A DNA stretch of 64,000 nt. Origin: Minisyncoccota bacterium (GTDB lineage: Bacteria; Patescibacteriota; Minisyncoccia; Phycocordibacterales; UBA9973). The DNA is taken from NCBI GenBank assembly GCA_041674285.1, contig JBAYVZ010000001.1, positions 165,129-229,128 on the forward strand, given 5' to 3'. Positions 10,676 through 64,000 of this stretch are shown here, piece after piece. The notes beneath the pieces are model-generated. The model had not been told where the DNA came from. It did not search any database and saw only the letters and a list, made by a program, of their open reading frames with translations. Within the stretch, counting starts at the first letter, position 1, and each line of letters begins with the position of its first letter. Position numbers and translations under genes: made by a program.

Positions 10676-11119
10676 CTATTTGTTTATTATTTGAATTTTG
10701 CACTCCCCTATTTCGTCACCTTTTTTAATCTTGAAAGAATGACTTCCCAATTCTTTTATTGGATTCGGTATGACTATAGAATGATCGTCTACAATATTCC
10801 CAGTTTTTTCTTTGATTAATTTTACAATATCTTTTGGAGATACAGCAGAGAAAAGATGCCCTTTTTCATTTGCTTTTATAGTCAGTGATAGTGATTCATT
10901 ATTTATCCTGTCTACCATACTATAAAATATAGCTACTTCTTCATCGTGCTTTTTTTGCATGGACTTTTTCTTGCTCTCTACTACTGCTATTGCATTGGGA
11001 GTAGCCAGTTCAGCTAATCCTTTTGCTATTAGAACATTGCGAGCATATCCATCTGCAAATTCTTTAATGTCGTATTTTTTACCAATCTTTTGTATGTCTG
11101 CCAATAATATAACTTTCAT
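10676..11119 (-). CDS. rplI: 50S ribosomal protein L9
   Basis: MKVILLADIQKIGKKYDIKEFADGYARN matches the L9 N-domain. Length is 147 aa. Confidence 0.85.
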   Translation of the reverse strand: MKVILLADIQKIGKKYDIKEFADGYARNVLIAKGLAELATPNAIAVVESKKKSMQKKHDEEVAIFYSMVDRINNESLSLTIKANEKGHLFSAVSPKDIVKLIKEKTGNIVDDHSIVIPNPIKELGSHSFKIKKGDEIGECKIQIINK

Positions 11120-11237
11120 CCCATTAGAAGTAGATAATCTTTAGATTATCGTACATTATTTAACTAATAATATCGAATATAAATAATTTTTTTAAATAGA
11201 CCCCGTGTTAAAACAACATATATGACTTCTAACGGGA
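11120..11237 (+). repeat. TIR-bounded intergenic element, subtype 2 (copy A), 118 bp
   Basis: Begins CCCATTAGAAG, directly abutting the rplI start codon (CAT on the plus strand), and ends CTTCTAACGGGA. It contains the hairpin GATAATC-ttta-GATTATC. It is nearly identical to the copies at 13980 and 31095 (the latter reverse-complemented). Confidence 0.85.
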
Positions 11238-11286
11238 TTCATATATAGAATATAACACTATAAAATACCTCATGCAAATACCAATA

Positions 11287-13763: not shown

Positions 13764-13979
13764 TTATTGATTAGGATTGTTGCTATCTACAAATGGCTGC
13801 ATGTTGTTTTCTTCTGAATATATTCTCCTTTTTGCATTTCGGTAAAAATGGTAACCAACAAAAGAAACAAGTAAACCCAAAATGCTTATTAATAGTGACC
13901 TAAAAAAACTAGGGATTCCCATGTAAGGCAAAATAGCGATTAATATTCCTACGATTAAAAGTATGCGTTCTTTTCTCAT
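13764..13979 (-). CDS. Small 2-TM membrane protein (71 aa, hypothetical)
   Basis: Two hydrophobic helices. Its start codon abuts the terminus of element copy B. Confidence 0.4.
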   Translation of the reverse strand: MRKERILLIVGILIAILPYMGIPSFFRSLLISILGLLVSFVGYHFYRNAKRRIYSEENNMQPFVDSNNPNQ

Positions 13980-14098
13980 CCCGTTAGAAGTAGATAATCT
14001 TTAGATTATCGTACATAAATTAAATAATAATATCGAATATAAATATTTTCTTAAAACAAAATCCGTAGCTTGAATGACATATATGACTTCGCACGGGA
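13980..14098 (+). repeat. TIR-bounded intergenic element, subtype 2 (copy B), 119 bp
   Basis: Begins CCCGTTAGAAGTAGATAATCTTTAGATTATCG and ends in the degenerate CTTCGCACGGGA. It is collinear with copy A and with the reverse complement of copy G. Confidence 0.85.
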
Positions 14099-14121
14099 CT
14101 CATTATTTGATTATAAACTAT

Positions 14122-17677: not shown

Positions 17678-17759
17678 GCCCGAGTGGCGGAATTGGTATA
17701 CGCGCACGACTTAAAATCGTGTCTCGCAAGGGATGCGGGTTCGACCCCCGCCTCGGGCA
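17678..17759 (+). tRNA. tRNA-Leu, anticodon UAA
   Basis: Cloverleaf readable by eye: acceptor GCCCGAG/CTCGGGC, anticodon stem CACGA/TCGTG with loop CTTAAAA (anticodon TAA), long variable arm (class II tRNA), T-arm GCGGGTTCGACCCCCGC, and discriminator A. No encoded CCA. Confidence 0.85.
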
Positions 17760-17764
17760 CAAGT

Positions 17765-17796: not shown

Positions 17797-17988
17797 TGTG
17801 CCCGAGAGAAAATGAACTGCTTCATTTTCATGCGGGGCGTCGAAAAGCTTTTCCTTGTGAACGAAGTTCAAGGAAAAGGTATACTGCCCCTGTAAGGGGA
17901 GACCACCCCGCCTCATACTTGTGACCAGTACCCAACTTTGCAAATCTAAAAGTACCCACCCCATAGGACGAGACCGCCCCGCCTCATA

Positions 17989-20628: not shown

Positions 20629-22110
20629 CTATTTTGTTAAAATTTGAATTGCTGACTTCAATCTCTCTATTGTTTCCTTTTTACCCAATATTTCCATCAG
20701 CATAAATGGGTCTGGGGATTTATCTCTACCTGATAGAGCATATCGTATAGGCCAGAGAATATCGCCTCTACCCACTTCCTCGGCGTATGGCCAGATAGAT
20801 TCCTTTATAAAGTCTTTATTGAAATTCTCTTCTAGGATCCCGTCTACGATAATTATAGATTTATCAAGATATGATGCTAGTATTTCATATTTATTCTCTT
20901 GTGGAATTTTTGATGATTTAAAGAATAATACATCTTTTTCGTATACAGGCTTACCAAAATAGTAGACGAGCTCTCCAGCGAGAGCCATCGTCTCCACATC
21001 TAGGCCTTTGCTCACTCTATCTATAACTACAGGAGTTATATTGTGGACTATTTCATTTGAAAAACCAGGTAGACCCTTGATAGACTCTGGTATAAATTTC
21101 AAAATATACTCCTCTTGATCTTCATAAGAAAGTTTTTTCAAATACTCTTTATTTAGCCAATCCAATTTTTCATCATTGAATTGTGCTCCAGATTTCTGAA
21201 TACGTGAGATATCAAATTCATTGGCTATTTCAGATGCGGACATCACCTCTCTATCGTCACCAGGATTCCACCCTAGGAATGCCAAGAAGTTCACCATAGT
21301 CTCTGGCAAGTATCCCTCTTTTCGGTAGTCTAATATATCTTTGGCTCCGTCTCTCTTACCGAGCTTTTTATTTCCACCAGTGGCCATGATGGGTGGCAGT
21401 GTAGCAAAAATAGGTGGCACGATATCGAGTCCTTCATATATAGACAGGAATTTGGGAGTAGAAGATATGAATTCTTGGCCACGCATGACATGAGTCACAC
21501 CCATCTCTATATCGTCTACTATGTGTGCAAAGTTATATGTAGGATATCCATCCCCTTTGATTAGTATGATATCGTCGAGTGCTTCCTCTCCAGCAGAAAG
21601 ATCACCAAATACTAGATCGTACCATTCATACCTCTTTATATTTGGGACTTTGAATCGTAGAGGTGCCCTGCCGTCCCACTCTTTATCGTGGTCTGGTCTA
21701 TGCTCTCTATACAGGAATGGTCTCTTTTCTTCTTCAGCTTTTTGGCGAAATACAGCTACCTCTTCCTCTGTATAAGGATCAGGGTAGGCTAGACCTTTTT
21801 CTAGTAATTTCATCGCATATTTTTTATACAAATCCAATCTTTGTGATTGTATATATGGAGCATGTGGACCATCTATACCAGGACCCTCATCCCAATCTAT
21901 ACCTAGCCATTTTAGAGATTCAAAAATATGCTCGATTGAACCTGATACTTCTCGCTCTTTGTCTGTATCCTCGATGCGCAGGATAAAAGTACCATTGTTC
22001 CTCTTTGCCCATAGATAGGCGAACAATGCGGTACGAACATTTCCCACATGCATAAAACCTGTAGGTGAAGGAGCAAAACGTGTAACTATTTTTTTATTAT
22101 CTGTATTCAT
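20629..22110 (-). CDS. gltX: Glutamyl-tRNA synthetase
   Basis: Class I HIGH-region variant (VTRFAPSPTGFMHVGNVRTALF). The length and C-terminal anticodon-binding domain fit GltX. The related glutaminyl-tRNA synthetase is possible but less likely, given gatB is present. Confidence 0.85.
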   Translation of the reverse strand: MNTDNKKIVTRFAPSPTGFMHVGNVRTALFAYLWAKRNNGTFILRIEDTDKEREVSGSIEHIFESLKWLGIDWDEGPGIDGPHAPYIQSQRLDLYKKYAMKLLEKGLAYPDPYTEEEVAVFRQKAEEEKRPFLYREHRPDHDKEWDGRAPLRFKVPNIKRYEWYDLVFGDLSAGEEALDDIILIKGDGYPTYNFAHIVDDIEMGVTHVMRGQEFISSTPKFLSIYEGLDIVPPIFATLPPIMATGGNKKLGKRDGAKDILDYRKEGYLPETMVNFLAFLGWNPGDDREVMSASEIANEFDISRIQKSGAQFNDEKLDWLNKEYLKKLSYEDQEEYILKFIPESIKGLPGFSNEIVHNITPVVIDRVSKGLDVETMALAGELVYYFGKPVYEKDVLFFKSSKIPQENKYEILASYLDKSIIIVDGILEENFNKDFIKESIWPYAEEVGRGDILWPIRYALSGRDKSPDPFMLMEILGKKETIERLKSAIQILTK

Positions 22111-22227
22111 CCCGTTAGAGATAGGAAATGTTTACATTTCCGTATATTTTTAATTTTAGTAAATAATACGACTTATGTTTATATAATACTTAATGTTAGA
22201 GATAAAACAAACAAATCTCTAACGGGA
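22111..22227 (+). repeat. TIR-bounded intergenic element, subtype 1 (copy C), 117 bp
   Basis: CCCGTTAGAGATAGGAAATGTTTACATTTCC ... ATCTCTAACGGGA. The left terminus directly abuts the gltX start codon. Internal hairpin GGAAATG-ttta-CATTTCC. Confidence 0.85.
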
Positions 22228-24627: not shown

Positions 24628-25731
24628 TTAAGCAGTTTTCTTTTGTTCTCGTGAGATGTTCAATATGATACCGATGATACCTGTAGCTAGGAGCAGATTC
24701 GTACCACCATGAGATACAAATTCTAACGGCACCCCCGTGAGCGGGAATACTCCGATGATAGATGCGATATTCATAAATGATTGAGCCGTGAACAGAGTGA
24801 TGATACCGATAGTAAATATCTTACTGAATGAGTCTGGCGAATAATATGCTATCTTGTACCCTCGCAAAGCAAAAGCTACAAAAAGGAATATGAGTAAAGT
24901 CGAACCGATGAATCCTACTTCTTCACCGATGACTGCGAAAATTGAGTCCCCTTGTGGTTCTGGAAGGTAATTGAATTTCTGTATACTCTGACCTAGTCCT
25001 CTACCAGCCACACCACCCGATCCCAGGGCGATCAGAGACTGCTGGAGCTGATAGGATGATCCTGATGGATCATATGATGGGTCCATAAAAGTTTTTACAC
25101 GCTCGAGAAGATATGGCTTTGTCATGACTAGTCCACCAAAAGCTAGCATCGCCACCATAATCATCATCAGTATATATTTCCATGGCATACCAGACACGAA
25201 TAGCATGACCAATGCGGTCGCAGACATGAGGATCAGACTCTTTGTATCAGGCTGATTGATCAGGATAGTAGCGATCAGCCCGAGTAGTACCACTAGTGGC
25301 AGCACGCTCCACCTCCAATCAGAAACCTTTGTCTTCACCCAAGACAGCCAAGCAGCAAAATACAGAACAAAAGCAATCTTAAGAAATTCCACAGGCTGGA
25401 AAGACAATCCAAATACATTGATCCACCTCTTTGCACCTCCATGAGAGAATCCGACATGTGGCACAAAGACCAGACAAGTCAGCACGATAGCTCCAATAAA
25501 TATATATAGCGAGTATGCCCTCCAGAATTTATACGGAATCTTCATCGTAAAAAACATAGCCACCAATCCACCAAGTAGCCCAAAGACAAATTGATTGAAC
25601 ATCACTCCGTAGAATTTCGCTTCATTCTTGGCAAGTATCCCCAGAGATGAAGAGGTAAACATAACAGCCCCTACTACTATGAGAGCCACAACTATACCAA
25701 AAAATACTTTGTCGATGTGTTTTGTTTTCAT
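24628..25731 (-). CDS. ftsW: Peptidoglycan glycosyltransferase FtsW/RodA (SEDS family)
   Basis: About 10 TM helices and SEDS motifs (GSGGVAGRGLGQS, LPEPQGDSIFAVIGEEVGFIG). Confidence 0.85.
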   Translation of the reverse strand: MKTKHIDKVFFGIVVALIVVGAVMFTSSSLGILAKNEAKFYGVMFNQFVFGLLGGLVAMFFTMKIPYKFWRAYSLYIFIGAIVLTCLVFVPHVGFSHGGAKRWINVFGLSFQPVEFLKIAFVLYFAAWLSWVKTKVSDWRWSVLPLVVLLGLIATILINQPDTKSLILMSATALVMLFVSGMPWKYILMMIMVAMLAFGGLVMTKPYLLERVKTFMDPSYDPSGSSYQLQQSLIALGSGGVAGRGLGQSIQKFNYLPEPQGDSIFAVIGEEVGFIGSTLLIFLFVAFALRGYKIAYYSPDSFSKIFTIGIITLFTAQSFMNIASIIGVFPLTGVPLEFVSHGGTNLLLATGIIGIILNISREQKKTA

Positions 25732-25848
25732 CCCGTTAGAGATAGGAAATGTTTACATTTCCGTATATTTTTAATTTCTAGTAAATAATACGACTTTATT
25801 TTTTAAACAACCGTAGTTAGAGATAAAACAAACGCATCTCTAACGGGA
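25732..25848 (+). repeat. TIR-bounded intergenic element, subtype 1 (copy D), 117 bp
   Basis: CCCGTTAGAGATAGGAAATGTTTACATTTCCGTATATTTTTAATTTCTAGTAAATAATACGACTT ... CATCTCTAACGGGA. It abuts the ftsW start codon and is >85% identical to copy C. Confidence 0.85.
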
Positions 25849-25854
25849 TTCATG

Positions 25855-28227: not shown

Positions 28228-29544
28228 TTAATATCCTTCGCCTTCACCGCTTAGTCGTTCATCGATTCTATTCATATCGCGCGGGAACATACAAGCTTCA
28301 CGCACATTTTTAAGTCCGAGCAATTGCATGGTGATACGCTCTGCACCAAATGCGAATCCACCTTCGGGTGGGACACCGTACTTGAATGCTTCTAGGAACA
28401 TTTTTACCTTTGCTGGATCCATACCCCAAGTCTTTACATTTTCCATAAGTTGATCGTATTTATTTACACGACGTCCACCAGATAGCCACTCGAGACCACG
28501 ACACAATAGGTCCATACCTTCATTGTATTCTGGCTCTTCAGGATTTGCATAGACATAAAAAGGTTTTTGACGAGTTGGGAAACCATACACAAAGACAAAG
28601 TCTGAGCCTGTCTCATTTTTTACTATCTCACATATTTCTCTCTCATCTTGAGCATTCAAATCCTTTTCACCGCGAACATCACGAGCATAGACATCAAATA
28701 TTTTTTGTTGAACTTCACGAAGTGAATATGTAGGAGTTTTCTCTATCATCACAGGCAAAGTAGCATCGAGCAATTTTAAGTGCTCTGCATTTTTCTCTTC
28801 TACTTGCTTCAATATATATCTCACAGTATCTTCGGCCATATCACGTACATCTTCCCAAGAATCGATAAATCCCATCTCAGCATCGAGTGACACTATCTCT
28901 GTAAGGTGACGAGTTGTAGAGGATGGCTCTGCACGAAAAACTTTGTTCACAGAAAAACATCGCTCAAAAGCAGACATTACTATTTGCTTGTAGAGCTGTG
29001 GAGATTGTGAAAGGTATGCCTTTTTACCAAAGTAATCCAATTGAAAAACTTCTGCACCACCCTCAGCAGTAGCAGGGACCATAGACGGAGCCTGGAATTC
29101 AAAGAACATATTCTGCTTCATAAATTCACGGAATGAATCGATGATAGTCTCACTCACTTTGAATACTGCTTGGATTTTAGGCTGGCGTAGAACAAGAGCA
29201 CGATTGTCTAGCTCTGTAGTCAGCTCTAGATTATAACCAGTCAAAGACATATCAAAAGGTAGAGTCTCGGCTTCTGCTAGAACCTCTATACCCTGTATCT
29301 CAAGCTCGAGTTCACCATTGAGTACTCCAGCTTTTACATTTCTCTCTGGACGAGGATTTACCTTGCCTTTTACTTTTACTACGAATTCACCACGTAGAGT
29401 TTTCCCCACTTCTAGGGCCTCTGTATAATTTGGCAGTATCACACCTTGTACTCGGCCAGTCATATCGCGGAAATCTAGGAATATCATCTTGCCTTGATCA
29501 CGGCGAACATCTACCCATCCAGCGATAGTCACCTCTTCACCCAT
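28228..29544 (-). CDS. aspS: Aspartyl-tRNA synthetase, archaeal/eukaryal-type short form (asparaginyl-tRNA synthetase not excluded)
   Basis: N-terminal OB fold, class II motifs (FRAE...RHLTE, QSPQLYKQ, GGGAERITMQLLG), 438 aa. gatB in the window suggests Asn-tRNA is made by transamidation, favouring a non-discriminating AspRS. Confidence 0.75.
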   Translation of the reverse strand: MGEEVTIAGWVDVRRDQGKMIFLDFRDMTGRVQGVILPNYTEALEVGKTLRGEFVVKVKGKVNPRPERNVKAGVLNGELELEIQGIEVLAEAETLPFDMSLTGYNLELTTELDNRALVLRQPKIQAVFKVSETIIDSFREFMKQNMFFEFQAPSMVPATAEGGAEVFQLDYFGKKAYLSQSPQLYKQIVMSAFERCFSVNKVFRAEPSSTTRHLTEIVSLDAEMGFIDSWEDVRDMAEDTVRYILKQVEEKNAEHLKLLDATLPVMIEKTPTYSLREVQQKIFDVYARDVRGEKDLNAQDEREICEIVKNETGSDFVFVYGFPTRQKPFYVYANPEEPEYNEGMDLLCRGLEWLSGGRRVNKYDQLMENVKTWGMDPAKVKMFLEAFKYGVPPEGGFAFGAERITMQLLGLKNVREACMFPRDMNRIDERLSGEGEGY

Positions 29545-29583
29545 CTTCTTATTTAAATCTTTTATGTATGTTCTGTTTTTCTT

Positions 29584-29700
29584 CCCATTAGAGATAGGAA
29601 ATGTTCACATTTCCGTATATTTTTAATTTCTATTAATAATACGACTTAATTTTTTAAAACAATTTACGTTAGACATCTTACAAGCACATCTCTAACGGGA
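29584..29700 (+). repeat. TIR-bounded intergenic element, subtype 1 (copy E), 117 bp
   Basis: CCCATTAGAGATAGGAAATGTTCACATTTCC ... ATCTCTAACGGGA, 40 bp from the aspS start. Its right terminus abuts the stop codon of the 70-aa ORF. Confidence 0.8.
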
Positions 29701-29913
29701 CTAGTGTATATATTGAGGAATCTGTTCACATGGATACCCTATCATAAAAGTCAGACCTACTAGTATCCAATAAAATGGGGCAAAAGCAAAATAGATCACT
29801 TTGTCATTTTTCCACATTGGTAGATACCATTTTTGGACTTTCATAAATAGCATAGACAAAGGTATGTTTATGACATTTAAAAGTATGAGTACAATACTAA
29901 GGAAGAATTTCAT
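29701..29913 (-). CDS. Small 2-TM membrane protein (70 aa) exactly filling the gap between element copies E and F
   Basis: Two hydrophobic helices. The start codon abuts the copy F terminus and the stop codon abuts the copy E terminus. Coding status is uncertain. Confidence 0.3.
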   Translation of the reverse strand: MKFFLSIVLILLNVINIPLSMLFMKVQKWYLPMWKNDKVIYFAFAPFYWILVGLTFMIGYPCEQIPQYIH

Positions 29914-30030
29914 CCCGCTTAGAAGCAGATCGCGATCAGCTCGCTTTTTTGCTTGATTATATTAATAATATTTTTAAAGCTTTTTTCCATATTTTTGTTT
30001 TTTAAATTGCGATCGCGGCTTCTAACGGGA
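29914..30030 (+). repeat. TIR-bounded intergenic element, subtype 3 (copy F), 117 bp
   Basis: CCCGCTTAGAAGC ... GCTTCTAACGGGA. The termini match the family but the interior is different and GC-richer, with palindromes GATCGCGATC and GCGATCGC. Confidence 0.7.
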
Positions 30031-30039
30031 TTCATATAA

Positions 30040-30984
30040 TTAAAAGTCTACTCCAACTTTTGTACGAACATCCTGCATCTTTTTCAATACCTGATTTCGA
30101 GCCTTATCACGACCATCTTGTAATATCTTCTTTACTTCGTCGATATTGTCTTCGTAGTATTTTCTCTTGTCTCTCATCGGACCTATGAATGCGATCACAT
30201 CTGACAGTAGTGCCTCTTTTAGATCTTTGTATTTACCTTCATGCTTTGCATATAAATCAGCTAGATACGCTTCGTCGCGGAATAGTTTATGTATAGCATA
30301 TACATTCTCAGGTCTCTTGCCGGTAGAATCTGTGACGATACCCATCACAGCCTTCTTTATCTCCTCGTCTGTTCCGAATAGTGGTATGACATTGTCGTAG
30401 CTCTTGCTCATCTTTCGTCCATCGATACCTGGTACGACTGCTACATTGTCCATGATTAGTGGCTCTGGCAATTTGAAAGTCTCGCCGTATGCATTGTTGA
30501 ATTTCTGTGCGATATCGCGTGCGTATTCGATATGCTGTTTTTGATCTTGCCCTACTGGTACAATATCTGAATCTTGGATCAGGATATCTGCCGCCATGAG
30601 AACTGGATAGTCGAATAGTCCTACACTAGCCTCCTTGCCCTTTGCCTCAGTATCCTTGTATGCATGTGCACGCTCGAGGAATGGCACAGTGACCAGACAA
30701 TTGAAATACCAACATAGCTCTGTGACCTCTGCTATGTCTGATTGCTTGAATAAGCAAACCTTCTTTGGGTCCAGCCCGCACGCCAGGTAGTCCATAGTGA
30801 TATTTAGTATTGATTTTGATAGCTTTTCCTTGTCTTGTACTGTAGTGATAGCGTGGAGGTCAGCTATAAATATAGATGTCTCGTATTGGTCCTGCAGGTC
30901 CACAAACTGACGAATAGCCCCAAAATAATTACCAAGATGCATGTCCCCAGTAGGTTTTATACCTGAAAGTAAAACTTTTTTCAT
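30040..30984 (-). CDS. trpS: Tryptophanyl-tRNA synthetase
   Basis: KKVLSGIKPTGDMHLGNYFGAI N-terminus (class I HIGH-like) and a KMSKS motif. About 315 aa from the internal Met; the track start is at 31023. Confidence 0.85.
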   Translation of the reverse strand: MKKVLLSGIKPTGDMHLGNYFGAIRQFVDLQDQYETSIFIADLHAITTVQDKEKLSKSILNITMDYLACGLDPKKVCLFKQSDIAEVTELCWYFNCLVTVPFLERAHAYKDTEAKGKEASVGLFDYPVLMAADILIQDSDIVPVGQDQKQHIEYARDIAQKFNNAYGETFKLPEPLIMDNVAVVPGIDGRKMSKSYDNVIPLFGTDEEIKKAVMGIVTDSTGKRPENVYAIHKLFRDEAYLADLYAKHEGKYKDLKEALLSDVIAFIGPMRDKRKYYEDNIDEVKKILQDGRDKARNQVLKKMQDVRTKVGVDF

Positions 30985-31094
30985 ATATATGAATAATAGC
31001 AAAAAACCAAAACTTTTGCACATTTAGTCCACAGTTTTATCCCATTTTGTCTGTTTGCGATATTTTGACGGATTGATAGAATACATAACATGGT

Positions 31095-31213
31095 CCCGTT
31101 AGAAGTCATATATGTCATTCAAGCTACGGAGACTGTTTAAATAAATTATTTATATTCGATATTATTAGTTAAATTATGTACGATGATCTAAAGATTATCT
31201 ACTTCTAACGGGA
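31095..31213 (-). repeat. TIR-bounded intergenic element, subtype 2 (copy G), 119 bp, inverted relative to copies A/B
   Basis: Reverse complement of the copy A/B sequence. Its right terminus CTTCTAACGGG-ATG supplies the nucleotides immediately preceding, and overlapping, the dnaB start codon. Confidence 0.85.
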
Positions 31214-32619: not shown

Positions 32620-32627
32620 TTATGAAT

Positions 32628-32746
32628 CCCGTTAGAGATGTGCTTGTCATATTTCTAGTATTGGGTAACATATAAAGATTAAGTCGTATTATTTACTAAA
32701 AAATTAAAATATACGGTAATGTAAACATTACCTATCTCTAACGGGA
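32628..32746 (-). repeat. TIR-bounded intergenic element, subtype 1 (copy H), 119 bp, inverted relative to copies C/D/E
   Basis: CCCGTTAGAGATGTGCTTGT ... GGTAATGTAAACATTACCTATCTCTAACGGG-ATG. Its right terminus abuts the recR start codon. Hairpin variant GGTAATG-taaa-CATTACC. Confidence 0.85.
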
Positions 32747-44046: not shown

Positions 44047-44098
44047 TTGCAAAACAATAGTATTTTGATACAATGCTTTTATCTATATGGGATAGTAT

Positions 44099-44214
44099 CC
44101 CGTTAGAGATGTGTTTGTTATTTTTTTAATCTTGGAACAATAAAAGAAAAAGTCGTATTTTTAATATAAATTAATCAGATACGGAAATGTAAACATTTCC
44201 TATCTCTAACGGGA
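44099..44214 (-). repeat. TIR-bounded intergenic element, subtype 1 (copy I), 116 bp, inverted
   Basis: CCCGTTAGAGATGTGTTTGT ... ACGGAAATGTAAACATTTCCTATCTCTAACGGG-ATG. Its right terminus abuts the arginase-family start codon. Confidence 0.85.
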
Positions 44215-56527: not shown

Positions 56528-59500
56528 TTATTTTACGTTATTGATAAAGTTGAATGATTCGTTGAAGTTTTTAAAGATAACATCAACGATAGACTCACTA
56601 GGTCTCGGTGTTATTATAGTACGAATTGGAAGTTTTTTCACATTCTTTGCGTCATCAGATGAAGCTACTTGGAATCGATATACCGTACCTGGCTTGAGTG
56701 TAGTTAGGATAACCACATGATTCAGAGTAAGCTCTGTATCTTCTTGCTTGTTTGCCAATGGCTTATCAGGAGATCCAGATCCTTCCTCGTAGTAAACCAC
56801 AGAGGTAGATGGTTCATCAGTCTTCCATGAGATGATAGTCTGAGTTTTGTCATTTCTACCTACAACCAGTGAACTATCTACTTTTACTTTTGATATTGCA
56901 GGAGCTGTCACATCTGTAGAAGTTTTGATTGTAATTGTTCCCGCTGATTCTACCGTATTTCCTATATCATTTAATCCTGACACATCTACTTGATACAAGG
57001 TTCCAGGATCAAGATTTTCTATTTTTACAACGTGACCAGTACTCCTAATATCATCTGTTCTCTTGTTTACTTTGCCGGTCTTTAGATTCTTGTATTCTAC
57101 GATTGATGAAGTTTTACTATTTGTACTCCACGACACAGTGAATGAATTCTTTGTAAGATTTGTAACAGAAACTTTTATCTTTGAAGCTTTGGTTATAAAG
57201 GTAAAATCTTTTGATTTACCTACGATCTGAGGCAATGAGAATGCTTTTGCCGAGAAGTGGTATTTTGTATTTGATTTTAGATTTATAAGTTTTACTTTGT
57301 GTATAGTTACCTTGCTTGTAGTATCTGATACTTCACCATTATAAGGATTATCTTTTGTCTCATCATAGTAATCATCTGTAGCATAACCAACGAGAGAGAA
57401 TCCTTTGATGTTTGTCTTGTATGTAATCACAGCACTATCCTCAGTAATATCAGTGACCACTGGAGCCTCTACGAATGGAGGCACGAGAGATGGCAATATT
57501 GATTCAATGCTTGATTCTATTTCATTTTGGAATTGCTCGACATTTTCAATCTTGTTTATCTCATCTAGATTCTCACTAAAGAATTTTGTCTTGAAAACTT
57601 GCTTGTCTCCTATAGATACAGCTACATTGCTATATTTATCTACAACTGCTATTCCATAGTAGTAATCTGTACCCACAGTCAAGCCTCCTATATTTATCTT
57701 GTGGTTTGTAGACCATTTAAAGTTACCTTCTGTCTTGCCGAAATCTTTTGTCTTGCCATAATCTACTCCAGCTACAGTCAATCGATCTGTATCAAATGTC
57801 ACTGTTGCTCCGAAAGCTGTAACATCAGATACTTTTATATTTGAAATCACTGGTAGTGTCGTTATCCCAAACATATTATTCTTCTTTAATTCTGCAAGCT
57901 CCTTCTGTAGAGCTTCGTACACAGATAGAGCTACTCCAGATGAACCGCCACCACCACCACTATTTACTACTATGACCTGACCTGCAGCCACAGTCTCTAC
58001 TTCTTGTTCTGGTGATATAGCGATATTCCCTGACCCATCCTCTGATACAACGACATAATAGTATGTAGTAGTAGCAGTGAGTGAATCCATCAGCGCCCAG
58101 TGAGTAGCTTGCTTGTCAGAATCATCACGTAGAGCACTAGATGAATATCCATTGTTAGGATCACCTAAAATATCTTCTGTGACCAAACCTTCCTCATTTT
58201 TTTCAAACGTATTTGTACTCCAATACACTTGAGTATTTGATCGCTCGTTAGTATTCCAACTCACCATCACAACATCACTCTTTATCACAGGAGTAGATAT
58301 ATTTGATATTGTTGGTGGAGCACTATCTTCTACTGTTCTTGTTGCTGTACCTGTTACTGTGCCACCTATACCTTCCGTATAGGTAACCGTATATATCACG
58401 TCACCACCAGAAACTCCGGCAGTAGAACTATTACTACTGATTGTATACGTAACTCCAGGGACATCAGTAACTGGTTGTCCATTTGTAATAAGATTTATTG
58501 ATGTAATACCATCAGCTGAATAAGTAGCACTCCAGTCGTCTGTAGGATAAGGCGCTCCTGGTGCCAAAACTAGAGGATTACTACTAAAAGTAATTGCGGG
58601 TAAGGGCTCATCAATCAAACCGAATCCGACTGCCATAGATACATCTCCTTTGATTTGTGAGAATGTATACCCAGCCTGATAATCATCTACATTCAAAGGT
58701 GTAATTGTGTCTCCGATAGTCACAGATAGAGTCTTTACTTTATGTAGATCTGTATCAGGGACAAATGTGTATGCTGGAGTAGACAGCTTGTCGACGACAA
58801 CATTTCCAGCAGAGATAGTATCTCCATTTGCATCCTTGACTGTTCCTGGACCTGTAATAGTAAGAGTTAGGTTATATGTATCTGCATAATCAACATTAAC
58901 TATTCTTTCTGCAGTAGAAATCCCTCCTGCACTTATCGCTTTGTAAATTATTTTATATTCCCCTACAGCATTAACATTTACCGCACCACTCTTGCTCCAT
59001 AGACATCCATTTTGCGGTGCAGTTGTAGTATCACCCTCTGTACAAGACACATCATTATCTTCTACAGCAGTTATGCCGTCATCGATATATTCTTCTCCGA
59101 GTACTACATCAACTTCAGGATCACCTAACAATGTGATCTCTGGTGCAGTTGTATCTAGAGTAGCAGTGAAAGAAACATTTATAGTTTTATTTTCTTGTAT
59201 ATCTGTGAATGATACAGAAGTAGAATTATTTGCACGAGTCTCACCCCCTACAGTCAGTAAATCTATACTGTATCCATCAGCTGGTGTGATTGTAAATGTA
59301 GCATCATTACCTGTAGTAGCACTTGCTCTTGGTATCGTATACACACTGTTACTTGCTGAGTAACCTGTTAGAGCTTGAGTAGTAGCATCTGCATCAACTG
59401 CTCCATTCGCACCCACAGTCACTGTGACTGTATATGATGCTGCTAGAACGACATTAACTGTTCTACTTTTTATGGTAGACAATCCACCTGAATCTTTTGC

Positions 59501-62500
59501 TGTATATGTATATGTATAGGTTCCTAGTGCATTTGTATTTACAGTTCCAGTTCTTATATATTCACAATCAGTAATAGTTGTACTGAAAGATGACACTGAA
59601 GTACAAGCAGACCCACTATCTTCAATAGTAGCACCAGCATCAGTATATGAACCACTATTAAGAACAACCTCAATACTGTCAGAATCAGTAAGAACTATAG
59701 TAGGAGCGACATTTTCAATATCATCATTGTATATAGTATAAATGAATGTTGATGTTCCTAGTGTCGCATTGTTTGGGTTAGCCAGTGTGACAATAATTGT
59801 TTCCCCTGCCTCAGAATTATCATCATTAGTAACAGTAAACGGAATACTTGCATTTGTAGATCCTGGAGCTATGGTCAAAGTTCCAGTTGTATTTGTCGCA
59901 GTAAAATCAGAATTCAATGTTGCTGTACCATCTGTGGTGATAGTATATGCGACAGTCACACTCTTACCAGAAGCAGGTAGAAGAGATACGTCTATAGTTT
60001 TCGCTGCTGGTGTATCACTTTCGAGACTACTATCATTATCTGTTGTAAATCCGATAGCAGGAGCATCATCATCATCATTTATGGTATATGTATATATTTT
60101 ATTTGTGAGAGCTACAGTCGCCATACCAGAAGACACAGCACTCAGAGTGACGACGATAGTCTCAGGATCTTCGTCTGTAGTATCTGCAGTTATTGGTATT
60201 TGAATAAGAGCAGAATCAGTATTTGCAGGGATAGTCACAGATAGCGGATTTGGAGCAGTGTAATCTGTACCTGCTGTTGCTCCACCTGTTAGAGTATATG
60301 TGACTACTGTATCTGTACCAGATTGAGCTGATATATATACTGGGATATCTATTGTACCAGCTGTATCTTCTGTGTCACTTAATGAAAGTGCATTTTCGTC
60401 AAATGAGACAGTGGCACTGATATCCGCGTCGATAGTATATGTATATGTATTTGTCGGTGATGAAGCACTGGCAATCTCCACATTGTCAGGAGACAATACC
60501 AAAACTACTGTTCTTGAACCCAATACATTTGGATTGTTGTTTACACCTAGTGTGATAACCCCAGTTGTTTGCCCTGCTGGTATTGTGATAAATCCAGCAC
60601 CCAGGTCATAGTCTTCTACTGGTGCAGTAGAGCTCGCATCTGCAGTGTAGTTTACTCTGACATCTTGGTATGAGGCATTTGTAAGTGTGACTGGGATACC
60701 AACTGTATCTACAGTCTCTGCACCATTACTAAATAGAGGTGAATCAAAGGTTATAGCAGGGATAGTATCGTCATTTGTAATTGTATGAGTATATACATCA
60801 TCAACTCCAGTAGTCAAAGTTGCGCCTGGTGCACTATTTATAGTCAATATTACGGTCTCATTTTGTTCATACCCGGTATCTCCAGTTATGTTCAGAGTTA
60901 TATCTGTATACAATTCACCCGCTGGTATAACAGCAGATCCTGACAATGCAGTAAAGTCTGTACCGCTAGTAGCTGTACCAGTTACTGTATATGTAGCTGT
61001 GATAGGACTACTAGATGCGCCAACAATAGAAAGTCTTATTGGAATTACTCCACTATTTGCATTTTCATTCACACTTGAATTATCAGTTACAGTAAATCCT
61101 ATAGCTGGAGCATCATCATTGTCTGTGATTGTATTTGTATATGATGCATTCCCGCCTGATGTAATCTTTGTAGGATCAACATTTAAGATAATAGTCTCTC
61201 CATTGTCTTGGATTGCGTCATCTACAACACTGATAGCAAGTGGTGCTACTAGAGTAGTATCTCCCGCTTCAAATGTCACAGTTCCAGCTGATGAGCCAGT
61301 CTGAGCCATTGTATAGTCGGTAGTAGCATCAGCTGAACCAGTGACAGTGTATGGGAATGATATATCGAGAGGATATGCACGTGATAGTGTCATACCTACA
61401 TTCACCGGCACTACTGGCGTAGCCTCAGCACTTGTACCCGTTAGAGAATCAAATGTGACAGTAGGAGCAGTGAGTACGAGTGGGTCCAATGTTCCATCTT
61501 CAGAATAATCACTCTGACTAGATAGCGGACCGGAGTCAGCAGCCTGATTGTCATGAACTAGGACTCTGATTCCAGTGTTTGAATAAGATCCACCAGCAAG
61601 GTCAACATCATTCTGAGCATTCCATGTGATAGAACCAGAGTAACCACTTGTAGCTATTGAACTATCGACGACTGAGACTAGGCTGTCAGTAGCCATGATC
61701 CATACAGGAGTACCAGTAAATATCGTACTGTTTTGTCTAGTTACCCTTGGTGATGTAGGCCATGTAGCACGTACAATACCAGTGAGAGAATTACTATTCT
61801 TTCCAGTATACTGAAGAACTTCATTGTTTAATTGAATATACCCTCCGCCAGATTTGAATCGAGATACATCAGATACAGGCAGATTACCACTAGACAATGC
61901 TCCAGTCGTCACTACCCCTATATTGTACATAACAACAGCTTCATACTCCGGACTATTTTTTGTACTAGCAGAAGGGTCTGTTAATAGGTAAGATACACTG
62001 ACAACTTTTGTTGTTGTGTTCTGGCTCGGAACAACATTTTCAACTTTTGGAGCAGTAGCTACGCTACCTCCTCCACCTTCACCATAGTCCTGAACACCAT
62101 TGGGTTTAACGTGAGTTTGAACATTCACCGAGATATTACTTCCACTGACCACAGAAAGCTTGTATTTGTAATGTTTTGTAGTATCTAGACCAACATCAAG
62201 GAAATGATAATTACCATTATTATCAGTAGACAAGCCACCTGAAGTATCGACAACAGAATATGATTCTTCGTACGTTATGTTGTCCGAAGATGAAGCTCTT
62301 TGCAGTTTATATGCACCAACTTCATTTGAATCAGCCCAACCGATATACATCGCATAGTAAGAAGTAGCGACATTTGATACGTCTTGGATAGTGAGTGACC
62401 CTGAGGTTACAGGTGCTGGAGTAGATATCAAAACGGGACCAGTCACATTACCATAGGAATCCCTAAATTCATAGTTCAAATCTTTAGCCTCAAAACCAGC

Positions 62501-64000
62501 ATCAAAACCCCAAGATGCAGTAGTATCTCCAGTTATAGACGTCCATGATCCTGTAGTCTGTGGTGTATTTGAAGTATGGTCAGATATCCTATATTCAACA
62601 GTAGATATATCTACAGGCATCGGAATAGTGACAATAGCATCTGAACCACCGGCTGTTCCCGCCTCTACTGTTACAGTAGCGGATGGGGCTTTTTGATCAA
62701 AATTAAATGATGAAGATTCAACATAGTGCACCATTTCACCAGTAGCTCCGTCGTCTGCCAGTAGACGTATTGTCATCGCACTATTTTCCATACCAGATGC
62801 ATCAGTTCTTGCATCCCATACGATACTCTTGTCTGCTGGAGGTGTATCATTTAGACTTTTTGCCTGATATCCATAATCCCCAGATACACTAGGTGCGTAT
62901 ATGTAAATTTTTGTATTCTGAGAATGTGAAGCTGGAGTTGCTTGATTATCAGTAGAAGTAAGACCACTAATTAGATAGTTAACACCCGCACCCCTAGTCA
63001 AACTAAGGACATTACCTGATTTTGTATATTCAATAATTTCATTATCTATAAGAATATATCCTGTGCTTGGAAATAGTGCTCCACTAGACACAGTCATACT
63101 AACAGCAGATGAATTTATTCCACCTGAAGGAACCAATATTCCAGAATCATAGAACAATGAGATACTAAGATTGTCTGACTCGATATCAGTTGCCTTGTAA
63201 CTAAGACTAATAGTGCCATCAGAAGCATGTTGAGACGGCGTAGACAGATTAGAGACTACAGGAGGAGCATTTGTAGAAACAAATGATATATCTGATATGG
63301 TACTAGTATTAGAAGCTCCATCAGTGGACTTTGCTCTTATTTTATAAGTCCTACCGATTTCAAATGGAACACTGGATGTAGAATAAGACCAAGTTGTTGT
63401 CCCAGTAGCTGTATTCCAACTCTCAGTAGTAGATGAGAAATCGGAACCATTATAATAATTACCATTTGATGATCCTCCTACACCGAGATCCTGGATAGAA
63501 ATTTCTACAGTATCCACATTAGACCCTCCTGTGTCAGCAGAAGTTCCAGCCACAGACCTCATGCTGTAAATTTGCTGAGGGGTTGCAGACTGACCAGCAC
63601 TAGTACATCCATTTCCAGGGATAGAACAAAATGCTGTCATAGCCAAAGTCGGAGCATTGACGTCAATCAAAACTGAACCATAACTAGAATACGCCGACTC
63701 ATTCAATGCACGGTCGATGGCTTTTACTCGGAAATACCAAGCACCATTAGCTAGAGTGGATTGATGGGTATAAGAATTTGTACTTGATGTACCATTTCCA
63801 ACATTCTGAGTAAACAAAGAATCGCTTGCCCACTGCACAGAATAAGTAGCCCCCACCATATTAGATTCGGTATCTGTAGAAGCATCCCATGACCATGTCG
63901 GATCACTATCGCTCAGTGGAGTTGATGTAGTTGATGGTGTACCAGGCACAGTAGGCGCAATGCTGTCTACATTTATAAGAGCGCCAGAACAAGCATAATT
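56528..64000 (-). CDS. Giant Ser/Thr-rich surface protein with tandem Calx-beta-like and Fn3/Ig-like domains; N-terminus truncated by the window edge (>2,490 aa)
   Basis: The reading frame stays open to the window end, and the track M at 63949 is a GTG. There are at least 5 repeats with the Calx-beta pattern (D-D-D-A-P-x-I-x-F ... Y-T-V-T-G-T-A-T-x-G-T-D-F/Y-T ... I-P-A-G ... I-T). Fn3-like modules are near the C-terminus. Confidence 0.75.
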   Translation of the reverse strand, partial: NYACSGALINVDSIAPTVPGTPSTTSTPLSDSDPTWSWDASTDTESNMVGATYSVQWASDSLFTQNVGNGTSSTNSYTHQSTLANGAWYFRVKAIDRALNESAYSSYGSVLIDVNAPTLAMTAFCSIPGNGCTSAGQSATPQQIYSMRSVAGTSADTGGSNVDTVEISIQDLGVGGSSNGNYYNGSDFSSTTESWNTATGTTTWSYSTSSVPFEIGRTYKIRAKSTDGASNTSTISDISFVSTNAPPVVSNLSTPSQHASDGTISLSYKATDIESDNLSISLFYDSGILVPSGGINSSAVSMTVSSGALFPSTGYILIDNEIIEYTKSGNVLSLTRGAGVNYLISGLTSTDNQATPASHSQNTKIYIYAPSVSGDYGYQAKSLNDTPPADKSIVWDARTDASGMENSAMTIRLLADDGATGEMVHYVESSSFNFDQKAPSATVTVEAGTAGGSDAIVTIPMPVDISTVEYRISDHTSNTPQTTGSWTSITGDTTASWGFDAGFEAKDLNYEFRDSYGNVTGPVLISTPAPVTSGSLTIQDVSNVATSYYAMYIGWADSNEVGAYKLQRASSSDNITYEESYSVVDTSGGLSTDNNGNYHFLDVGLDTTKHYKYKLSVVSGSNISVNVQTHVKPNGVQDYGEGGGGSVATAPKVENVVPSQNTTTKVVSVSYLLTDPSASTKNSPEYEAVVMYNIGVVTTGALSSGNLPVSDVSRFKSGGGYIQLNNEVLQYTGKNSNSLTGIVRATWPTSPRVTRQNSTIFTGTPVWIMATDSLVSVVDSSIATSGYSGSITWNAQNDVDLAGGSYSNTGIRVLVHDNQAADSGPLSSQSDYSEDGTLDPLVLTAPTVTFDSLTGTSAEATPVVPVNVGMTLSRAYPLDISFPYTVTGSADATTDYTMAQTGSSAGTVTFEAGDTTLVAPLAISVVDDAIQDNGETIILNVDPTKITSGGNASYTNTITDNDDAPAIGFTVTDNSSVNENANSGVIPIRLSIVGASSSPITATYTVTGTATSGTDFTALSGSAVIPAGELYTDITLNITGDTGYEQNETVILTINSAPGATLTTGVDDVYTHTITNDDTIPAITFDSPLFSNGAETVDTVGIPVTLTNASYQDVRVNYTADASSTAPVEDYDLGAGFITIPAGQTTGVITLGVNNNPNVLGSRTVVLVLSPDNVEIASASSPTNTYTYTIDADISATVSFDENALSLSDTEDTAGTIDIPVYISAQSGTDTVVTYTLTGGATAGTDYTAPNPLSVTIPANTDSALIQIPITADTTDEDPETIVVTLSAVSSGMATVALTNKIYTYTINDDDDAPAIGFTTDNDSSLESDTPAAKTIDVSLLPASGKSVTVAYTITTDGTATLNSDFTATNTTGTLTIAPGSTNASIPFTVTNDDNSEAGETIIVTLANPNNATLGTSTFIYTIYNDDIENVAPTIVLTDSDSIEVVLNSGSYTDAGATIEDSGSACTSVSSFSTTITDCEYIRTGTVNTNALGTYTYTYTAKDSGGLSTIKSRTVNVVLAASYTVTVTVGANGAVDADATTQALTGYSASNSVYTIPRASATTGNDATFTITPADGYSIDLLTVGGETRANNSTSVSFTDIQENKTINVSFTATLDTTAPEITLLGDPEVDVVLGEEYIDDGITAVEDNDVSCTEGDTTTAPQNGCLWSKSGAVNVNAVGEYKIIYKAISAGGISTAERIVNVDYADTYNLTLTITGPGTVKDANGDTISAGNVVVDKLSTPAYTFVPDTDLHKVKTLSVTIGDTITPLNVDDYQAGYTFSQIKGDVSMAVGFGLIDEPLPAITFSSNPLVLAPGAPYPTDDWSATYSADGITSINLITNGQPVTDVPGVTYTISSNSSTAGVSGGDVIYTVTYTEGIGGTVTGTATRTVEDSAPPTISNISTPVIKSDVVMVSWNTNERSNTQVYWSTNTFEKNEEGLVTEDILGDPNNGYSSSALRDDSDKQATHWALMDSLTATTTYYYVVVSEDGSGNIAISPEQEVETVAAGQVIVVNSGGGGGSSGVALSVYEALQKELAELKKNNMFGITTLPVISNIKVSDVTAFGATVTFDTDRLTVAGVDYGKTKDFGKTEGNFKWSTNHKINIGGLTVGTDYYYGIAVVDKYSNVAVSIGDKQVFKTKFFSENLDEINKIENVEQFQNEIESSIESILPSLVPPFVEAPVVTDITEDSAVITYKTNIKGFSLVGYATDDYYDETKDNPYNGEVSDTTSKVTIHKVKLINLKSNTKYHFSAKAFSLPQIVGKSKDFTFITKASKIKVSVTNLTKNSFTVSWSTNSKTSSIVEYKNLKTGKVNKRTDDIRSTGHVVKIENLDPGTLYQVDVSGLNDIGNTVESAGTITIKTSTDVTAPAISKVKVDSSLVVGRNDKTQTIISWKTDEPSTSVVYYEEGSGSPDKPLANKQEDTELTLNHVVILTTLKPGTVYRFQVASSDDAKNVKKLPIRTIITPRPSESIVDVIFKNFNESFNFINNVK

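Follow-up and report, generated by a model that had tools for sequence, protein, structure and literature searches.

Why would two copies of an inverted-repeat element enclose a small open reading frame (ORF) so precisely that not one nucleotide is left over on either side? The question is posed by a stretch of 64,000 nucleotides from a Minisyncoccota bacterium (contig JBAYVZ010000001.1, positions 165,129 to 229,128; hereafter the window), in which two elements, copies E and F, lie on either side of ORF70, a 70-codon ORF between trpS and aspS. As described below, E and F are two independent insertions of ORF-less members of a single family, that is, of MITEs (miniature transposable elements with inverted repeats), and ORF70 is not their cargo. 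The family inserts at start codons and has a full-length form encoding a GIY-YIG nuclease. We regard the explanation as a whole (independent start-codon insertions of E and F, ORF70 and a similar gene, ORF71, as residents, a full-length nuclease-encoding form, helices that are kept, and mobility that we infer to be driven by the nuclease) as highly probable.

The layout of the locus, read on both strands over 29400-30200, is given here in minus-strand order; proximal and distal denote the ends of a copy next to and away from the gene that it adjoins.

30040 to 31023, minus strand: trpS (PF00579), upstream neighbour of ORF70; its stop codon TAA (30042-30040) lies 4 nt (ttat) before the original ORF70 ATG.
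30031 to 30035, minus strand: ATGAA, the distal duplication of F, which is the original ORF70 start codon plus 2 nt and now opens a 38-codon upstream ORF.
29913 to 30030, minus strand: copy F, ORF-less, of the long-range-stem type, at the ORF70 start codon.
29701 to 29913, minus strand: ORF70, 213 bp, 70 aa, two predicted transmembrane segments, resident between trpS and aspS.
29583 to 29700, minus strand: copy E, ORF-less, with a gene-proximal hairpin (helix P2, 29597-29614), at the ancestral aspS start codon.
28228 to 29583, minus strand: aspS, its frame open to the terminus of E; first ATG in the window at 29544 (Met14).

F, ORF70 and E join without a gap, and the exact fit described in the initial annotation is plain in the sequence: base 29913 is at once the last base of the F inverted repeat and the A of the ORF70 ATG, while the ORF70 stop codon TAG (29703-29701) abuts the distal terminus of E. 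F runs from TCCCGTTAGAAGCCGCGATCGC to GATCGCGATCTGCTTCTAAGCGGG and is followed by ORF70 (ATG AAA TTC ..., ending CAC TAG); E runs from TCCCGTTAGAGATG to CTCTAATGGGA and is followed by AAG AAA AAC AGA ..., in frame with aspS. The upstream ORF that crosses F (30035-29919) encodes MNPVRSRDRNLKNKNMEKSFKNIINIIKQKSELIAICF and ends 5 nt short of the ORF70 ATG, at a TAA that belongs to the 3' inverted repeat.

Syntenic relatives, reached via the ORF70 homologue P0002, supplied the corresponding sites without the elements. The F site is empty in loci L121 and L122, where it reads TAAttatATGAAattc (wider junction, gtagactttTAAttatATGAAattcttcc), and filled in the window and in L120, where F stands between two copies of ATGAA. 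The E site is empty in L120, L121 and L122, reading catTAAaaatATGAAaaacag (wider junction, catTAAaaatATGAAaaacagaac); in this state aspS starts 4 nt after the ORF70 stop, and the aspS of these relatives begins at the position of the E terminus and encodes 451 aa. In the window the junction has become cacTAG-E-AAGAAaaacag: 9 nt, made up of the distal ATGAA and a spacer, are gone, which is why the ORF70 stop touches the repeat, and the proximal ATG has mutated to AAG. Thus E inserted at the aspS start codon, and both flanking ATGAA copies were later lost. The ancestral aspS start is the proximal terminus of E, at 29583, and not 29544 as first annotated; in the window Met14 (29544) probably serves as the start now, or else the AAG is a sequencing error. 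Within the same interval (29544-29592, minus strand), a C to T change in the E repeat (CTAATGGG) has produced an ATG, out of frame, from which an ORF of 8 codons runs. In one more distant relative, L123, the spacer between ORF70 and aspS is 311 nt long (560-868). With GGGTGGCACCGCG and, after it, a hairpin resembling a terminator, this spacer has the look of a T-box leader for aspS.

These comparisons establish E and F as separate events at neighbouring start codons. The initial annotation had favoured a composite transposon, in which E and F act jointly and ORF70 is cargo whose expression signals come from the elements; it is true that ORF70 is flanked exactly by both copies and that the sequence directly upstream of it is wholly F. 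However, the trpS-ORF70-aspS arrangement is element-free in L121, L122 and L129, carries F only in L120, and is kept without F in the more distant L123-L129. In L128 an element of a different subfamily sits at the aspS ATG, a site that is empty in its close relative L129; the aspS start codon has therefore been struck independently by another subfamily. Moreover, E and F are members of different subfamilies, lie in direct orientation and have separate junctions, F having its own duplication and E matching the aspS empty site, and no movement as a unit with a single outer duplication was found. The copies present only in the window (E and G) and those shared with L120 (D and H) likewise behave as single copies. 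We accordingly give the composite transposon almost no credence. The bracketing of ORF70 follows from the start-codon insertion rule, the 4-nt spacer between ORF70 and aspS, and the later 9-nt deletion at the distal edge of E.

The rule can be read from the other copies in the window. The terminal 10-mer TCTAACGGGA, with at most one mismatch, has 19 matches in the window compared with 2.5 +/- 1.5 in shuffled sequences; 16 of them are termini of nine elements, A to I, of 117-120 nt each, and three lie inside genes. The distal terminus of B and the proximal terminus of F are too diverged to match. Besides E and F, the copies and ORF71 are as follows.

11119 to 11237, minus strand: copy A, at the rplI start; ATGAA duplication at 11238-11242; site empty in L234 and filled in L233.
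13979 to 14098, minus strand: copy B, at the ORF71 start; distal duplication ATGAG at 14099-14103.
13764 to 13979, minus strand: ORF71, a conserved small membrane protein gene resident in its operon.
22110 to 22227, minus strand: copy C, at the gltX start; no distal duplication kept.
25731 to 25848, minus strand: copy D, at the ftsW/rodA (PF01098) start; ATGAA duplication at 25849-25853.
31094 to 31213, plus strand: copy G, at the dnaB start; distal ATGG at 31090-31093; promoter TTGCGA-16-TAGAAT just upstream.
32627 to 32746, plus strand: copy H, at the recR start; distal ATGAA at 32622-32626; P2 hairpin at 32715-32732.
44098 to 44214, plus strand: copy I, at the start of an arginase-fold gene (PF00491); no distal duplication kept.

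Translation from the last base of each oriented copy gives the N-terminus of a real gene in eight of the nine cases (rplI, ORF71, gltX, ftsW/rodA, ORF70, dnaB, recR and the arginase-fold gene). From the last base of the ninth, E, it gives KKNRTYIKDLNKKMGEEV..., the N-terminus of aspS with AAG replacing ATG. Contact with a start codon, which had been thought peculiar to the two small ORFs, is thus the common state of the window copies, ancestrally including E; ORF71 does begin on the last base of B, just as ORF70 begins on that of F. In six of the nine, the far flank repeats the first bases of the gene (ATGAA, ATGAG or ATGG). Empty sites were also found for G in L120 (TAGAATggaaggATGGCT) and for B in L233, L234 and L235 (ttTATAATcaaataATGAGaaaag, with a leaderless-type promoter). 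F, B, A and G were each inserted at a start codon, with ATGRR duplicated.

ORF70 and ORF71 are resident genes under selection. ORF70 has 134 homologues (E-value of 1e-17 or below) in Paceibacteria and Nomurabacteria genomes, nearly all of exactly 70 aa and 54-93% identical, and its ratio of nonsynonymous to synonymous substitution rates (dN/dS) is 0.07-0.18; ORF71 has 10 homologues of 69-71 aa, 62-93% identical, with a dN/dS of about 0.16. Neither has a Pfam match. The two ORFs are real genes and not fortuitous. Nor is ORF71 cargo of an element: it occupies the same context in relatives lacking B, and in three of them it has the same upstream promoter.

We then looked at the family beyond the window. 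One genome per species was scanned with the pattern TCCCGTTAGA-N85-112-TCTAACGGGA, requiring exact 10-nt termini, which gave at least 119 loci; the counts that follow refer to the matches listed. The Candidate Phyla Radiation (CPR: Saccharibacteria, Paceibacterota, many Parcubacteria lineages, Kazan, Levybacteria) accounts for nearly all of these loci, and a few are from Omnitrophota or Elusimicrobia genomes or from oddly labelled metagenome-assembled genomes. Viral contigs, searched as possible carriers, had no match to the element. An ATG is flush with exactly one end in 124 of 134 elements. The 5-nt duplication is perfect in 91 of 130 oriented copies and agrees at four of five positions in another 13; ATGAA (57) is the commonest type, followed by ATGGA (16), ATGAG (11) and rarer ones. 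Positions +4 and +5 of the duplication are almost always purines, and its last two bases covary between the flanks. An ORF of at least 50 codons adjoins the element in 111 of 118 testable copies (94%). Among the 694 ATGRR sites of the window, genes start at 29, and 28 others lie between genes without being starts, so that insertion at any ATGRR followed by purging of intragenic hits would leave about 50% of copies at starts; the observed values are 9 of 9 in the window and 94% across the family. We conclude that the family inserts at start codons, with the target A/TGRR and the product ATGRR-TCCCGTTAGA...TCTAACGGG-ATGRR-gene.

Some variants with the same repeats were seen alongside. Tandem double insertions exist (for example L082), and nested or tandem copies occur also in L061 (about 2089-2231). 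Very short variants of 71-80 nt, some of them GC-rich, are present in L039 (4315-4392), L044 (2169-2244), L046 (159-238), L071 (2235-2305) and L073 (433-511), and longer ORF-less ones of 190-280 nt in L094 (858-1049), L081 (1251-1482) and L098 (7264-7546). In another group the distal flank is AYYTG/TCCCG (ACTTG, ATCTG, ACCTG) instead of ATGRR, whatever the proximal ATGNN (L023, L028, L056, L139, L154, L165, L167, L177, L179 and L211; L139 has the variant CTTGG); this flank usually lies at the expected transcription start, after a -10 box.

The family also has a full-length form. Repeat-bounded segments in L097 and L015, each with an 84-aa ORF, were the first members recognised. These elements have the same terminal inverted repeats, measure about 278 bp and carry a single ORF that starts 5-10 nt inside the 5' repeat. 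Its product belongs to the GIY-YIG superfamily by profile (PF01541, 59.6 bits against a cut-off of 22.6), and among solved structures it is closest to the UPF0213 proteins 1ZG2 and 1YWL, so that by sequence it is a stand-alone predicted nuclease of the UPF0213/YhbQ/Slx1-like type. Its homologues number 374; the best 120 of the 374 have lengths of 83, 84 or 92 aa and identities of 80-100%. Its dN/dS is 0.13, and the catalytic motifs (Y.Y, YTG, LRKR, HN, YYE and N, with the R, H and E columns) are invariant. In every context fetched, the nuclease ORF lies 4-5 nt upstream of a gene on the same strand, and in 69 of 80 metagenome loci it is bracketed by the repeats, in elements of 273-286 bp. L130, for instance, reads TACAAT-actaga-ATGGA/TCCCGTTAGAGATTACTT ATG ... 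TCC TAT CTC TAA CGGG/ATGGAAATT, the slashes marking the element edges; in L143 the nuclease frame extends back to the distal ATG, and the 92-aa form results. The nuclease stop is a TAA in the 3' repeat in 25 elements, and in 35 the protein ends in LTG at a TGA that overlaps the host ATGA. The host ATG is flush with the element in 47 of the 69 bracketed loci, and most of the others have a flush GTG and begin with CCCC at the 5' end. As for the terminal pair, T-A occurs in 48, C-G in 10 and T-G in 3 full-length elements; because it covaries, the last A (or G) of the inverted repeat, with which the host start codon begins, is part of the element, and only TGRR is strictly duplicated.

Two helices, P1 and P2, are conserved. 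P1, the terminal stem of at least 13 bp, formed in each of 130 minimum-free-energy folds; its positions 11-13 are variable, yet 97-98% complementary, compared with about 70% when partners are shuffled. P2 adjoins the gene-proximal arm, with T(A/G) between them. In 55 copies, which have 41 distinct stems, it is a local hairpin of 7 bp; in 57 copies, F among them, it extends the long-range stem and has an asymmetric loop, CGC//TG. Hairpins are gene-proximal in 55 copies and distal in 8. In full-length elements P2 is built from codons of the nuclease, those for DLRKRL (about nt 92) pairing with C-terminal codons (about nt 255), and it is complementary at 9 of 9 positions in 54 of 61, with many compensatory variants. 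P1 and P2 are thus maintained by compensatory change. G-T and A-C mismatches, compared as a gauge of whether the helices act as RNA or DNA, are symmetric in number (14:8, 7:6 and 11:7); the near-perfect Watson-Crick pairing leans slightly toward helices at the DNA level. The short copy in L015 aligns to positions 1-104 and 257-280 of the full-length profile, a deletion between the two P2 strands. Most short copies have interiors too diverged to align with this profile; their recurring CGGGATA and AGTCGA motifs may correspond to the codons for YTGYT and ARSRE, judging by sequence.

Several other roles for the folded element were considered and set aside. As an antisense terminator, the hairpin and T-run look terminator-like in AT-rich copies only. 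A self-cleaving ribozyme, an RNase III or tRNA-like processing site and a Xer/dif site do not fit, the conserved bases being helical, the element mobile as DNA and the motifs unsuited. Integron attC sites have the core RYYYAAC ... GTTRRRY, and the element has the reverse order, GTTAGAG ... CTCTAAC, with GTT outermost. A scan for internal sigma-70 promoters gave 13, compared with 10.2 in shuffled sequences, which is not above background, and the -10-like boxes inside elements are evenly spread over both strands.

The covariation of P1 and P2, the conservation of the termini across phyla and the fixed position relative to the AUG are also what one would expect of a vertically inherited cis-regulatory leader, an RNA switch or operator module of a regulon that does not move, and F and D are indeed more conserved than the neighbouring genes. 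Such a leader is nonetheless hard to reconcile with presence/absence polymorphism at about 90% nucleotide identity with clean target duplications, with host genes that are functionally unrelated, with the tandem double copies of L082 and with the existence of a protein-coding full-length form. At its gathering score, Rfam 15 matched only a tRNA-Leu in the window, and a more permissive search gave nothing overlapping copies E, F, G or H at an E-value of 5 or below. We consider a fixed leader very unlikely; inserted copies may have a secondary regulatory effect.

The high conservation of F and D has a bearing of its own. F is identical at 117 of 117 positions in the window and L120 (3884-4000), and D at 118 of 118 (L120 8072-8189), although the adjoining genes are only 84-88% identical (88% for those flanking F) and the synonymous divergence (dS) at ORF70 is 0.62. 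A, for its part, is about 98% identical between genomes, and H in L120 has conserved ends and a diverged middle. The identity of F and D does not fit old neutral copies, and suggests either recent spread into the same sites, by homing or by gene conversion through recombination, or strong constraint. L120, a close relative, also has an extra gene at 2290-2835, between dnaB and trpS, for a 181-aa protein without a recorded Pfam family. The window lacks this gene, and the gap between dnaB and trpS there consists of about 70 nt and copy G.

The features of the short copies are those of MITEs: terminal inverted repeats, duplications verified against empty sites (F, B, A and G), a length of 105-132 bp, many copies (nine in 64 kb), only relic peptide frames, and a cognate partner in the elements of about 278 bp, which have the same ends and a GIY-YIG ORF. 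They depart from ordinary MITEs in that the partner protein lies outside the recognised transposase classes (DDE, DEDD, HUH, Ser, Tyr), the only ORF being a PF01541 domain. It is conceivable that these are ordinary MITEs moved by a conventional transposase that escaped us, for example of the IS1380/piggyBac-like kind (CC repeat starts, 4-5-bp duplications), the GIY-YIG ORF being a passenger or a nested homing gene. Terminal repeats with a short duplication are typical of DDE elements, piggyBac-type ends begin with CCC, and GIY-YIG enzymes are hydrolytic nucleases that are not known to act as transposases. Against this, the nuclease ORF spans the element from repeat to repeat, takes its stop codon from the repeat and supplies the codons of which P2 is built; 69 of 80 nuclease relatives are bounded by these repeats; and the nuclease element has given rise to some short copies by internal deletion. 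A search for a larger autonomous partner, using orphan and distant repeat pairs in 119 loci of about 8 kb, gave only the variants of 71-80 nt and 190-280 nt. We judge the conventional transposase unlikely, and prefer an element moved by its own nuclease.

How such an element would move and be expressed can be sketched. Mobility would be driven by the nuclease, which would probably cut DNA that is structured or is the target and leave repair and ligation by the host to finish the insertion; our best guess is an Slx1-like enzyme, selective for structure, whose substrates would be P1/P2 DNA and ATGRR targets. The short copies would be internal-deletion derivatives mobilised in trans. Upon insertion, the element would capture the host start signals, often a leaderless promoter with its transcription start site at the A of the ATG. 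In the window, motifs resembling the Shine-Dalgarno (SD) sequence precede 6 of 59 genes and leaderless-type boxes (TATAAT-like, 5-8 nt before the ATG) precede 12 of 59, which suggests widespread leaderless expression in this genome. Many of the targets are leaderless: TATAAT-like boxes before the distal ATG are commonest at a spacer of 6 nt (18 cases), and a -10 box lies 5-8 nt upstream of this ATG in 28 of 130 short copies and 18 of 59 full-length sites; the empty B, A and G sites and the promoter of G in the window are examples of the leaderless type. The element ORF would in this way be placed under host initiation signals, and termination-reinitiation would bring ribosomes back to the host AUG. 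In 34 of 100 short copies the upstream ORF that begins at the distal ATG is open to the repeat TAA or the ATGA, compared with at most 3 of 100 in control frames, and F, with its 38 codons, is one such copy. Where the upstream ORF stops early, as in A-E and G-I, the 5' arm of P1, otherwise paired up to the AUG, would at least be melted as that ORF is translated. Bridging of an SD and the AUG by the closed stem was discarded: the distal flanks lack an SD (21 of 129 have any core, with no positional peak), and the genome hardly uses SD sequences.

A number of observations weigh against this account. In about 60% of short copies, including A-E and G-I in the window, the upstream ORF stops more than 30 nt before the host ATG, and therefore simple termination-reinitiation is not the general mode. 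No nuclease gene is present in the 64-kb window, and C, E and I have no target duplication. The nuclease is an 84-aa catalytic domain with neither a DNA-binding domain nor a strand-transfer activity, and could be the passenger of an unseen transposase. The identity of F and D at a dS of about 0.6 fits homing or gene conversion better than old vertical copies. Besides, the scan counts describe only the best-conserved members, those with exact 10-nt termini among the matches listed. We put forward, as a possibility with somewhat less than an even chance, that the elements of about 278 bp are an unrecognised class of autonomous prokaryotic mobile element and the smallest known: one whose sole protein would be a bare Slx1/YhbQ-like GIY-YIG domain, which would have a two-helix DNA fold, integrate at the first base of start codons, often a leaderless +1, use host initiation signals with stop-start coupling, and, with its ORF-less derivatives, occupy 10-15% of gene starts in some CPR genomes.

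The family can be set beside several known systems. The Correia elements of Neisseria, the enterobacterial ERIC and the pneumococcal RUP and BOX are similar in size (about 100-150 bp), in their terminal inverted repeats, short duplication and many intergenic copies, and in their co-transcription with flanking genes and strain-level polymorphism. Unlike the family described here, they derive from or depend on DDE-type insertion sequences and use loose intergenic sites (TA for Correia), whereas here the insertions are phased to start codons, the element donates the first codon base and the partner is a GIY-YIG protein. The Seg proteins of phage T4 and I-TevI resemble it as selfish GIY-YIG genes between or at the edge of host genes, and the identical copies of F and D in diverged flanks recall homing. 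However, homing enzymes have a C-terminal DNA-binding domain and a long cognate site, and have neither inverted repeats nor duplications, nor ORF-less copies at dozens of unrelated genes; the protein found here, of 83-92 aa, is the bare catalytic domain (84 aa), and the targets share only ATGRR.

The UPF0213/YhbQ/YazA proteins (PDB 1ZG2, 1YWL), the best sequence match of the nuclease among solved structures, are prokaryotic stand-alone members described as the minimal GIY-YIG domain (PMC1564403), and Slx1, the family founder, is a structure-selective nuclease (PMC7017083). By analogy, Slx1-like structure selectivity would suit an element that folds into P1 and P2. YhbQ-type genes differ in being treated as single-copy housekeeping or repair genes, and we found no report in the literature of such genes bounded by inverted repeats and target duplications. 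The REPIN/RAYT and IS200/IS605 palindromes are also short, non-autonomous long hairpins whose structure covaries and which are served in trans by a small nuclease-type enzyme, but these enzymes are of the HUH Y1 type, the repeats are subterminal, and there is no target duplication and no start-codon phasing, whereas the present elements have terminal repeats and duplications. Finally, the byp elements of yeast mitochondria and T4 gene 60 are insertions, with short edge repeats, that are tolerated in expression units by means of translation. They lie inside coding sequence and the ribosome hops over them; here the element is upstream of the AUG and the upstream ORF ends at or beside it. We found no description of this element family in the literature; our coverage of subscription journals was thin, so an earlier description is possible.

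Two further features of the window were recorded. Just downstream of the tRNA-Leu gene (17678-17760) are two GC-rich direct repeats of 30 nt (17888-17917 and 17959-17988; CCCTGTAAGGGGAGACCACCCCGCCTCATA, 80% alike), 71 nt apart. At 56528-63949, on the minus strand, an ORF of 2473 codons, which presumably encodes a giant surface protein, has repeats of 51 nt inside it (60045, 60744, 61092).

What distinguishes the MITE family examined here is its phasing to start codons, together with its GIY-YIG partner. Outside the elements, non-coding DNA amounts to about 3.3 kb of the 64 kb and the nine elements add 1.1 kb, so that the copies make up about a quarter of the non-coding DNA of the window, and they sit on the starts of essential genes (dnaB, recR, aspS, gltX, ftsW, rplI). 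Lying on start codons, they affect start-site calling, as for aspS here, and models of gene expression in the CPR. If the nuclease does mobilise the family, a GIY-YIG-based element of about 280 bp would be added to the known transposase classes, and it would provide a clear case of target choice tied to the start points of translation or transcription. The family also offers natural constructs for the study of leaderless initiation and termination-reinitiation in organisms where Shine-Dalgarno sequences are nearly absent.

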